A stretch of 64,000 nt of DNA. Origin: Candidatus Abzuiibacterium crystallinum. GTDB taxonomy: Bacteria; Omnitrophota; Omnitrophia; Omnitrophales; Abzuiibacteriaceae. Under the pieces are notes generated by a model, which saw nothing but the letters and a program-made list of their open reading frames with translations, had not been told where the DNA came from and searched no databases. This document shows positions 5,997-7,994 of this stretch, piece by piece. The position numbers were made by a program, and so were the translations under genes. The stretch's first letter is position 1, and each line of letters starts with the position of its first letter. The stretch spans positions 71,884-135,883 of the forward strand of contig PCVY01000016.1 in the NCBI GenBank assembly GCA_002787155.1, written 5' to 3'.

Positions 5997-7820
5997 ATGA
6001 GTTCAGTTCGTCATTTTTTCACAGAAAACAAGAGGCAAGTTTTTGCAATTGTTGTAGTTGTTTTAATTGGCTATCTTGTCTTTGCTCCCGCTTTAAAATA
6101 TGGTTTTCATAATATTGATGATTACGATTACGTTGTCGTCAACTCCGATATCCGGGGTTTTAATTTAGATTATGCAGCTAAGTGGTTGACGCGTGATTAT
6201 GTACTGATGTACGTCCCTGTCACCATGGCTTCGTTTGCCCTCGACTACCAAATCTGGGGACAGCAACCGTTCGGTTATCATCTTACTAATTTATTGTTCC
6301 ATATTGCGAATGCCTTGTTGCTATATTTGCTTTTACTTCGACTCTCTAAGCACTGGTGGCTTGTGTTTGCGTCTACCTTATTATTTGTTTTTCACCCCGT
6401 TCAAATTGAAACAGTGGTTTGGGTTAGTGAACGGAAAAACTTATTAGCTGCCTTTTTTTGTTTACTCACTTTGCATCAGTATCTCAACCGCCGCTGGTTT
6501 CAGACGCTATTCTTTTTTCTTTTAGCCTTACTTTCCAAGCCCAGCATGGTCATTATCCCCGTGCTGATTGGCTGGCATCAAATTTGTTTTGAGCCTATGT
6601 GGAAGAAATATAAGCAATATGGTTTATTAGCACTCATGATAGCAGCCTCTTTTTTGATTGGGATATATATGGTTACCATCAATCGCCAGACCGAGATCAT
6701 TTTAAGAGGTGGTACGCATTGGAGTAACTTTTTAACTTCGATAACGGTCTACTATCGCTATGTTCAATTACTTTTATTTCCATTTACACAACAACTTTGG
6801 CGTGTCACCGAACTTTATACATCAATTTGGCGGCTACCGGTTCTTGTGACGTTGATTGGTTTAGCCGTGGTTTTTTCCGCTATCGTTTCGCAGCGTAAAA
6901 AAGAACCAATGGCATGTTTTATGGCAGGTTGGTTTTTTATTCATTTGATTCCAAATTCACATTTAATTCTTGCCGTTCAAAGTTTTATGCAAGATCGTTA
7001 TCTTTACTTACCGATGGTTGGATTTTACTGGGTAGGATTTTATCTCATACACAAAGTAACAAAAGGCGCCTTATTTCCAGCCGGGTCTTCGACTGTCGCA
7101 TCGTCTGGCCCTACGCTCGCAATTTTTTTGATACTGGCAATGCCATTGCTTTGGTTGCAGCAAGAGCGGTTAAGACTTTGGAAGAATCCCGTTTTGCTTT
7201 GGGAGGCAGACATTTCAAAAGCCCGATATCCCGATGGGCGTCTATATGAGGGGTTAGCTTCAGCCCATACCATGGCAGGCGACATTCAAAGCGGAACCAT
7301 TGCTACTGAGCAGGCGATGATCTATCGACCAACGACCGAAACCCTGTTTAGACAAATTCAGAATTTTCTCTTTGCCGGAAACGCAGAAAGTGCGCTAGAA
7401 ACGCTGAAAGAGATCGGAAAAACATATGATCAAATGACGCCTTTATACAAGTCACTTTATCTCGATCTTTATGGCTTTTACTACGCGATTATTGGTGAGA
7501 AAGATTTGGCATTGGAATCTTACCAGCGGGCTGCCAAGCTGCATCAGTCGGTGAGCCCTTATGTTCACATAGCTGATATGTATTATGCAAAAGGGCAGCG
7601 GGAGAAGGCTATCGAAGAAGTGAAAAGAGCTTTAGCGGTAGATCCTGATGCGCTTACCGTTTTGAAACGCCTATGTAGTTGGCATATCGAATTGGGACAA
7701 TTTGAAGAAGCTTATCAATATTATCAAAAGCTGCTTCGGATTGTGCCGAACGATGACTATGTGAAGTTTATTAGTCGTAATATGGAAAGAAAAATAAATG
7801 AGCAGTCAAAACCCTCCTAG
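5997..7820 (+). CDS. Polytopic membrane protein with TMTC/DUF1736-like GT-C glycosyltransferase N-terminal domain and C-terminal TPR repeats
   Basis: About 10 transmembrane helices. First loop carries FHNIDDYDYVVVNSDIR. ...PVTMASFALDYQIWGQQPFGYHLTNLLFHIANALLLYLLL matches the conserved TMTC/PMT-like first-loop and TM2 signature. The last ~230 aa are TPR-like (Y/A/L periodicity, e.g. AIEEVKRALAVDPD). RBS AGGTGAGAAAG. Confidence 0.6.
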   Translation: MSSVRHFFTENKRQVFAIVVVVLIGYLVFAPALKYGFHNIDDYDYVVVNSDIRGFNLDYAAKWLTRDYVLMYVPVTMASFALDYQIWGQQPFGYHLTNLLFHIANALLLYLLLLRLSKHWWLVFASTLLFVFHPVQIETVVWVSERKNLLAAFFCLLTLHQYLNRRWFQTLFFFLLALLSKPSMVIIPVLIGWHQICFEPMWKKYKQYGLLALMIAASFLIGIYMVTINRQTEIILRGGTHWSNFLTSITVYYRYVQLLLFPFTQQLWRVTELYTSIWRLPVLVTLIGLAVVFSAIVSQRKKEPMACFMAGWFFIHLIPNSHLILAVQSFMQDRYLYLPMVGFYWVGFYLIHKVTKGALFPAGSSTVASSGPTLAIFLILAMPLLWLQQERLRLWKNPVLLWEADISKARYPDGRLYEGLASAHTMAGDIQSGTIATEQAMIYRPTTETLFRQIQNFLFAGNAESALETLKEIGKTYDQMTPLYKSLYLDLYGFYYAIIGEKDLALESYQRAAKLHQSVSPYVHIADMYYAKGQREKAIEEVKRALAVDPDALTVLKRLCSWHIELGQFEEAYQYYQKLLRIVPNDDYVKFISRNMERKINEQSKPS

Positions 7821-7994
7821 TACCGTTAGACATTTGAAATTGTGAGTCCTGCGCATTGACCAACCTGTGGCTGTAAATAATAAATCTTCATGATACCTCC
7901 GAGAGAAACCCCTATAATCAAATGTCTAACGGTACTAGTGCGCTTTAGCGCTGGTGCCGCCTTCCGGTAAAATCAATTGTCAGACGGTACTAGT
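7817..7994. repeat. Intergenic repeat element. A 20-bp perfect inverted repeat (7817-7836 and 7919-7938) flanks an 82-bp core containing TATAAT. A third direct copy with 2 mismatches lies at 7978-7994.
   Basis: CTAGTACCGTTAGACATTTG and its exact reverse complement CAAATGTCTAACGGTACTAG. TGTCAGACGGTACTAGT repeats the right arm. The left arm overlaps the stop codon of the upstream gene. Confidence 0.5.

Follow-up and report, generated by a model that had tools for sequence, protein, structure and literature searches.

A CTAG-bounded palindromic repeat family dispersed in Omnitrophota and present as two abutting copies upstream of pilM in Candidatus Abzuiibacterium crystallinum

The Correia elements of Neisseria (CREE/NEMIS) and the ERIC/IRU elements of enterobacteria are palindromic intergenic inserts of ~100-150 nt that give rise to long RNA hairpins; they can carry outward promoters, be cut by RNase III and alter mRNA stability. 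Hairpins of this sort can protect 3' ends, offer duplexes of RNase III length and impede read-through, and the hairpins of repetitive extragenic palindromic (REP) sequences, when located near stop codons, can lower translation of the upstream gene. REP sequences form dimers with variable spacers and carry tags that supply TAG stop codons, and a moderately abundant class of terminal inverted repeat (TIR) sequences is linked to Y1 transposases (Di Nocera et al. 2013, PMC3733652). The described REP families keep a G at the first position of the tag, which is GTAG or CGTC in the known superfamilies (PMC3733652). Here, we analyzed a 64,000-nucleotide stretch of contig PCVY01000016.1 (the window) from the metagenome-assembled genome (MAG) of Candidatus Abzuiibacterium crystallinum, a member of the Omnitrophota, in which a palindromic repeat lies in the pil locus between a gene for a TPR protein and pilM. 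Our results showed, with high confidence, that the segment 7817-7993 consists of two abutting copies of a non-coding, CTAG-bounded, palindromic repeat family with further members dispersed through this genome and others in a second Omnitrophota MAG and among Planctomycetota, and that it is neither ancestral to the pil locus nor a pil-specific operator. The repeat is a selfish insertion of a familiar kind and not a pilus-specific control site. The family is REP/MITE-like and mobile (MITE stands for miniature inverted-repeat transposable element) and, as far as we found, has not been described.

A sequence-only reading of this DNA had reported a perfect 20-bp inverted repeat in three copies, the last with 2 mismatches. 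The inverted repeat is real and slightly longer than was claimed: CTAGTACCGTTAGACATTTGA at 7817-7837 is the exact reverse complement of 7918-7938, giving 21-nt arms with 80 nt between them, and none of 100 dinucleotide-preserving shuffles of the window contained any match at ≤3 mismatches. The third arm copy, at 7973-7993, is identical to the 21-nt arm at 18 of 21 positions; the 17-mer originally noticed (7978-7994) does differ at 2 bases from 7923-7939, and in direct orientation the similarity extends over 27 nt, with 85% identity between 7913-7939 and 7968-7994. Three arm copies thus exist, but the third is the end of a separate 59-nt element that had been missed, and the segment is made up of two elements, E1 and E2, which have one CTAG (7935-7938) in common (Table 1). 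The TATAAT hexamer at 7913-7918, which lies inside E1, the short palindrome GCGCTTTAGCGC at 7940-7951 and the overlap with the upstream stop codon were all as first described.

The right-end unit of E2 was recognized by covariance model R1, which was built from other copies, with a score of 55.4 bits (E = 7e-15). A near-twin of E2, 60 nt long, ~82% identical and alike in architecture, is present at another locus of the same MAG (L010:2934-2993); of the copies compared within one genome, only these two are homologous throughout. The core of E1 has no homologue in any locus collected for comparison. Within the window itself, no further copy was found by exact and mismatch searches, an nhmmer profile of the ends or the covariance model with filters off. 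The sequence of the gap between the TPR gene and pilM was identical in five contigs from five samples, which excludes an artefact of assembly and indicates that this near-clonal population is fixed for the repeat.

To describe the distribution of the family, the pattern TCAANTGTCNNACGGTACTAG was scanned once over metagenome collections and once over genome collections, so that the numbers given here underestimate its spread. Matches were obtained at 8 metagenome and 10 genome loci. At all of them the similarity stops directly after CTAG and the next base is variable, and an inverted partner was found for most copies at a distance of 59-142 nt, with a tip that is mostly CTAG too. PilM of the window is identical to a protein of a MAG with the locus-tag prefix COV74, which is listed as Candidatus Omnitrophica bacterium CG11_big_fil_rev_8_21 by NCBI and as Candidatus Abzuiibacterium crystallinum by UniRef. 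Loci L010 and L011 encode proteins with the same prefix, which places both loci in the genome of the window; L010 holds two elements. A further locus, L006, could be placed only in the same sample as the window. At least 5-6 copies were seen in the pieces of the source MAG, where the elements lie beside uvrC and beside genes for a GT2 glycosyltransferase and a DegT aminotransferase. In the Omnitrophota MAG HK-STAS-OMNI-5 (JACKFM01) the pattern scan gave 7 exact matches on three contigs, and at least 8 exact copies along with several diverged hairpin units were counted there overall. Versions bearing the same ends were also present in two Planctomycetota MAGs and in several high-GC metagenome contigs. 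One match, in Nodularia (L019), was set aside as chance, as it has no partner arm and no covariance-model match.

The pil locus has the gene order pilB, pilB, pilC, pilS, pilR, pilA, TPR, gap, pilMNOPQ and RNase G. The gap between the TPR gene and pilM (7821-8129) is 309 nt and is the largest in the cluster, as had been noted; it is composed of 173 nt of repeat past the stop codon and 136 nt of native spacer. In three relatives with TPR-pilM synteny, in which PilM is 69%, 63% and 61% identical, the intervals between the two genes measure 110, 118 and 59 nt, with no sign of the repeat in any of them. Of the interpretations offered in the sequence-only reading, that of a MITE or REP-like intergenic family was supported: the ends recur at unrelated loci and in other genomes, the flanks diverge at CTAG, and orthologous pil loci are without the repeat.

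The native spacer contains TTGACGATAGTAAAAT, which is the counterpart in the window of a motif, TGTCGATA(A/G)TAAAAT, of relatives L024, L025 and L027. Each of the four genomes has this motif 40-60 nt before the start of pilM, suggesting that the native control region of pilM is likely intact and lies downstream of the insertion. We consider it a candidate for the promoter or operator that natively serves pilMNOPQ. The motif is also overlapped by one copy of a 12-nt direct repeat, AATTGACGATAG (8071-8082) and AAGTGACGATAG (8203-8214), the other copy of which falls in the pilM coding region, probably by chance.

Table 1. Positions of the repeat elements and associated features of the TPR-pilM region (coordinates of the window)
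Feature	Coordinates	Strand	Description
Element E1	7817..7938	.	122 nt; perfect 21-nt inverted arms 7817-7837 / 7918-7938; CTAG at both tips; core 7838-7917 (80 nt)
Element E2	7935..7993	.	59 nt; left end, short hairpin at 7937-7952 with GCGCTTTAGCGC; right end, full hairpin unit at 7951-7993
E2 right tip	7990..7997	+	Terminal CTAG then TTTT; hairpin plus U4, a weak, non-canonical terminator-like arrangement
Sigma-70-like promoter match	7890..7918	+	ATGATA, 17 nt, TATAAT; 10/12 matches; in E1, facing E2 and pilM
Native TPR-pilM spacer	7994..8129	+	136 nt; holds TTGACGATAGTAAAAT at 8073-8088
TPR protein gene	5997..7820	+	607 aa; downstream of pilA; TAG stop 7818-7820 inside the left terminal CTAG of E1
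pilM	8130..9194	+	First gene of pilMNOPQ; Pfam PilM_2, E = 1.7e-49

The ends of the family are conserved over ~27-30 nt, with a consensus of approximately CCnnTAAAATCAAWTGTCnnACGGTACTAG, and the elements, which range in size from 59 to 142 nt, have no coding capacity. E2, the element at L008 and the 81-nt elements of HK-STAS-OMNI-5 have ends that fold individually into hairpins, and the 9-bp stem of such a hairpin begins at the G of CTAG and closes a conserved loop of ~19 nt. An alignment of 12 half-units supported this structure, with 88.9% of cells paired versus 16-53% when the partners were slid by 1-3 columns, and with compensatory changes at four stem pairs. Elements of the E1 type fold differently, by pairing of one end with the other. 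Predicted folds of the elements were far more stable than those of shuffled sequences (z of -4.9 to -8.8), including that of E1 RNA (-36.7 kcal/mol, z = -5.8). CTAG is the tag in nearly all copies, and there is no duplication beyond the CTAG tips. The junction between the hairpins of a dimer is CTNG (CTG, CTTG, CTGG or CTCG), which from its sequence looks like a damaged CTAG. A TAnnnT-like hexamer recurs in about half of the family ends at the distance from the tip that TATAAT has in E1.

The interiors of the elements behave differently from the ends. Among four long elements, of which those at L010 and L011 were shown to be in the MAG of the window and that at L006 comes from the same sample only, the ends are 70-96% identical, whereas the cores are no more alike than shuffled sequence. 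Elements of the E2 type have one full end only, yet they are present at two loci. Three arrangements were observed: double hairpins of 81 nt, arrays in which as many as four units follow one another (L015:6200-6357), and pairs of the E1 type, whose cores of 44-68 nt are unrelated.

Some of these copies have features of their own. The arrays of HK-STAS-OMNI-5 (L015:6200-6357 and L018:294-433) consist of as many as four hairpin units, each with CTAG or CTNG at its boundaries, and have at least three different loop sequences; this MAG thus carries several sub-families with a common stem foot. In Planctomycetota-type high-GC elements (L007:934-1067 and L013:3106-3247, the latter equal to L014), two inverted copies of a GC-rich palindrome, CATGCCCACGGCAAGCGTGGGCATG, lie between the arms and may represent a second repeat family nested inside them. 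L008 and L011 are syntenic, with 30-60% protein identity, but differ in where the repeat is located. Beside its element, L008 has an additional gene of 503 aa (DUF4062 plus a HATPase_c_4/Fic-like C-terminus); L011 has two adjacent genes there.

Three real genes have a TAG stop codon that falls on the terminal CTAG of an element, namely those for the TPR protein in the window, the DegT aminotransferase at L010 and a fatty-acid desaturase at L018. The Pfam profile of the DegT aminotransferase is covered to position 359 of 360, indicating that its C-terminus is intact. The C-terminal tails of TPR orthologues extend 6 to 14 residues past a common IS/VS motif, and with tails this variable there is no sign that the TPR protein was truncated. 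CTAG occurs at 58 sites in the 64 kb of the window, or ~0.9 per kb, which is ~four-fold below the 1/256 expectation, and three of the 58 are element tips (7817, 7935 and 7990). Because CTAG is this scarce, C-TAG stop codons make up a notable share of the sites available.

How might such elements have spread? We tentatively favor the idea that they behave like REP, REPIN or TIR-repeat elements and not like classical MITEs mobilized by a DDE transposase, a choice that we regard as close to an even call and slightly short of one. The propagated unit would be a hairpin with the foot CTAG-T(A/G)C...G(T/C)A-CTAG that is recognized in single-stranded DNA, and the mobilizing enzyme would be a trans-acting HUH/Y1 transposase, similar to a REP-associated tyrosine transposase (RAYT) or its TIR-repeat counterpart (TIRYT), encoded elsewhere in the genome. 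The E1-type inverted pairs with arbitrary spacers and the hairpin dimers of the E2 and 81-nt types would then be alternative arrangements of the same unit. This mode is favored because the hairpins are kept by covariation, because the cores are unrelated even between elements of one genome, because the E2 type with its one full end occurs twice, and because the dimers and clusters mirror the REPs and Y1-linked TIR repeats of Di Nocera et al. (PMC3733652).

Several results weigh against a REP-like mode. The tag is CTAG rather than the GTAG or CGTC of the described REP superfamilies, and copy numbers appear low: ~5-6 were seen in the parts of the source MAG covered here and at least 8 in HK-STAS-OMNI-5, against the hundreds of classical REPs. 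The ~19-nt loop is conserved in sequence, which is more typical of a double-stranded transposase-binding site within a TIR of 24-30 bp, and CTAG at both ends would be equally expected from duplication of a TA or CTAG target by an enzyme of the IS630 or IS5 type. Finally, no transposase of any kind was found beside the elements, in the window or in ~300 kb of loci collected for comparison. Flanking open reading frames (ORFs) matched only housekeeping genes in Pfam, all-against-all blastp of the ORFs of element-bearing loci revealed no recurrent neighbour gene, and precomputed Pfam matches over nearly the whole 64 kb included no transposase. Searches of the window and the ~300 kb of loci with E. 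coli RayT (tblastn and phmmer) gave nothing below E = 0.8. As no transposase was found, the mobilizing enzyme is purely inferred.

The main rival to the REP-like mode is that E1 and E2 are classical MITEs, either deletion derivatives of or cross-mobilized by a CTAG-targeting DDE insertion sequence (IS), either of the IS630/Tc1 type, in which TA within CTAG is duplicated, or of the IS5 type, in which CTAG itself is duplicated. The 27-30-bp ends would then be double-stranded TIRs to which the transposase binds. We consider this possible, if unlikely. Much of the geometry is consistent with it: the elements are non-coding, 59-142 nt in size and, in E1, bounded by perfect 21-bp TIRs; CTAG is present at both tips; and a single CTAG is common to the abutting elements, as if the second had inserted into the terminal CTAG of the first. 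The apparently low copy number fits as well, and the ~30 nt over which the ends are conserved is similar to the 24-bp TIR footprint of ISY100; conservation of sequence over ~30 bp is typical of TIRs of this kind. IS630 prefers the TA in CTAG, in the account of Tenzen and Ohtsubo 1991 given by PMC2170065, and the 100-nt MITEPsy1 duplicates CTAG (PMC3189936). In keeping with a MITE, the elements are small and non-coding and have terminal inverted repeats; full-length homology among the copies in one genome, also expected of MITEs, was seen only between E2 and its near-twin. The long elements, two of which are in the MAG of the window, have unrelated cores, which argues that they were not amplified from one MITE and hold no common subterminal IS remnants. 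In addition, the E2 type is present at two loci even though it is without a second full TIR, and the end hairpins covary, whereas a double-stranded TIR needs no such pairing. No parent IS with the same ends was found in the window or in the ~300 kb of loci.

A more speculative reading would be that REP-like hairpin repeats include, besides the classes tagged GTAG and CGTC, a third one that is tagged CTAG, to which these repeats belong and which is common to Omnitrophota and Planctomycetota. Such a class might be mobilized by a so-far unrecognized enzyme, of the HUH/Y1 type or otherwise structure-specific, that reads the palindromic tag and the conserved 19-nt loop, and the TAG within the tag might lead to preferred landing on C-TAG stop codons. 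We regard this reading as possible but unlikely.

With respect to pil expression, we considered whether the insertion might act through RNA. The predicted fold of the gap transcript, a long stem-loop having been proposed from the sequence, is very strong (-63.9 kcal/mol, z = -5.8), which follows from the element being a palindrome. A read-through transcript of pilA and the TPR gene would gain the E2 hairpins and, ahead of them, a perfect stem of 21 bp with its start at the stop codon. As a passive consequence, these hairpins could protect the upstream 3' end, provide a duplex of RNase III length or partly uncouple the TPR gene from pilMNOPQ, and the conserved motif that precedes pilM is retained, on the downstream side of the insertion. 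We regard any such effects as by-products and not as a dedicated function, because no canonical terminator was called, the other copies are without a T-run, promoter matches do not exceed those of shuffles and relatives do without the repeat. A scan of 7600-8300 called no intrinsic terminator-like site, the loop of the E2 end hairpin being ~20 nt and followed by only four U residues, and no T-run past CTAG was found in the other copies. The promoter-like match in E1 is one of three such sites in 700 nt, where 1.8 +/- 1.3 were expected, and is not significant alone. Taken as a whole, an explanation that combines a dispersed repeat, a REP-like mode of spread and a passive effect at the pil locus is the best that we can offer, and we hold it with moderate confidence.

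A stronger version of the RNA effect is that the repeat has been exapted, with the E1 and E2 hairpins now adjusting the proportion of pilA-TPR and pilMNOPQ transcripts by termination, attenuation or processing, or with the TATAAT of E1 serving as an extra pilM promoter. The stability of the predicted structure is consistent with this, as are the 21-bp perfect duplex, which has the length of an RNase III substrate, the UUUU directly after the E2 hairpin, the 10/12 promoter match that faces pilM and the identity of the gap in five contigs from five samples; REP and Correia elements do act in this way. However, the gaps of the relatives, at 59-118 nt, contain no hairpin, no canonical terminator was called, the T-run is missing from other copies, and the number of promoter-like sites is not above that of shuffles. 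The identity of the five contigs reflects near-clonal populations, since the PilM protein is likewise identical in all of them. Exaptation is therefore improbable, in our view.

The sequence-only reading had also suggested operator sites for a dimeric regulator, such as PilR or another pil regulator, that would control pilMNOPQ. Three 21-nt sites upstream of pilM, each with a TGTC core, would suit such an array, but it is very improbable: three relatives do not have the site in this gap, elements beside unrelated genes are bounded by the same sequence, including the aminotransferase, glycosyltransferase and uvrC neighbours in the same genome, and the similarity always ends at CTAG, which is the pattern of an element boundary and not of a binding site. 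That the palindrome arose locally by chance or in assembly, for which the only argument is that the DNA is a metagenome assembly, has a negligible probability in light of the shuffles, the identity of the repeat in five independent assemblies and the related copies elsewhere.

Other known kinds of element and site were compared with the repeat and rejected. Across the window, no Rfam family matched at gathering score; two snoRNA matches in 7750-8140, obtained when E values up to 10 were allowed, had E of ~4 and were attributed to chance. No tRNA or tmRNA was found. The pair GTTAGAC...GTCTAAC resembles the GTTRRRY/RYYYAAC boundaries of an integron attC site, but its polarity is reversed on both strands and the variable bases are not conserved in other copies (GTCAGAC, GTCACAC and GTCATAC). 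A sigma-54 promoter was suggested by TGGTGCC in E2 and TGGCACCC in Planctomycetota copies, but the GG-N10-GC spacing is absent. The conserved AATCAA recalls a binding site for IHF, but the 3' TTR of WATCAANNNNTTR is missing, and a hammerhead-like GAAAC...GUC in E1 is without CUGAUGA. A blastn search of PLSDB plasmids with 7805-8005 gave no match, a pattern scan of IMG/VR viral contigs was likewise without a match, and in the literature we found no paper that pairs Omnitrophota with miniature inverted-repeat elements.

The gene upstream of the repeat encodes a 607-aa protein with Pfam matches to C-terminal TPR families only. Its N-terminal ~490 residues are without annotation, and the encoding strand is T-rich there, suggesting a membrane domain. 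Orthologues are found at the same place in all of the relatives, and the gene looks like a conserved pilus accessory gene.

These results bear on how the locus and the phylum are annotated. The three apparent sites upstream of pilM are a recent selfish insertion and not an operator array, which removes a false lead for the pil locus and directs attention to the conserved motif further downstream, at 8073-8088, as the likely native control region of pilM. The analysis also documents a family of small palindromic repeats in the Omnitrophota, all knowledge of which comes from metagenomes. Repeats of this kind create spurious ORFs and break assemblies, so that a description of the family is of use in annotation, and the repeat could mark strain-level variation. 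If the mobilizing enzyme were identified, the catalogue of REP/RAYT-like or CTAG-targeting elements would extend into the Planctomycetes-Verrucomicrobia-Chlamydiae (PVC) group and its relatives. The family is mildly interesting for its CTAG tag, its landing on stop codons and the presence of its ends in more than one phylum, and is unsurprising in principle.

Among known systems, the Correia and ERIC elements resemble the repeat at the RNA level. They differ in sequence and in host phylum, and a functional effect is documented only for them. CTAG-target MITEs are closer in form. MITEPsy1, an IS5-derived element with an 18-nt TIR (PMC3189936), and the IS630 family have in common with the repeat a size of ~60-140 nt, TIRs, a lack of coding sequence, CTAG ends and an intergenic location. 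The printed TIR sequences of MITEPsy1 are unrelated to the ends described here, however, and, in contrast to CTAG-target MITEs, the present elements have interiors that are unrelated within one genome and ends that fold as covarying hairpins, with no parent IS found. The third comparison is with REP, REPIN and BIME elements and their RAYT enzymes, and with TIRtrons (PMC3733652; Bertels and Rainey 2011, PMC3116915). The repeat differs from these in its palindromic CTAG tag, where theirs is GTAG or CGTC, in its long (~19 nt) loop of conserved sequence, in an apparent ~10 copies per genome instead of hundreds, and in that no RAYT or TIRYT gene flanked by the repeat was found in the sequence searched here. 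It resembles them in consisting of short extragenic hairpins whose stems carry a tag of 4 nt at the foot, in having stems that are kept by compensatory changes, and in occurring as single units, as inverted dimers 1-2 nt apart, as dimers with unrelated spacers of 20-100 nt and as clusters. As in those elements, which are also found in the PVC group, the tag often provides the TAG stop codon of the neighbouring gene. Altogether, the family is a further example of a well-known kind of element.

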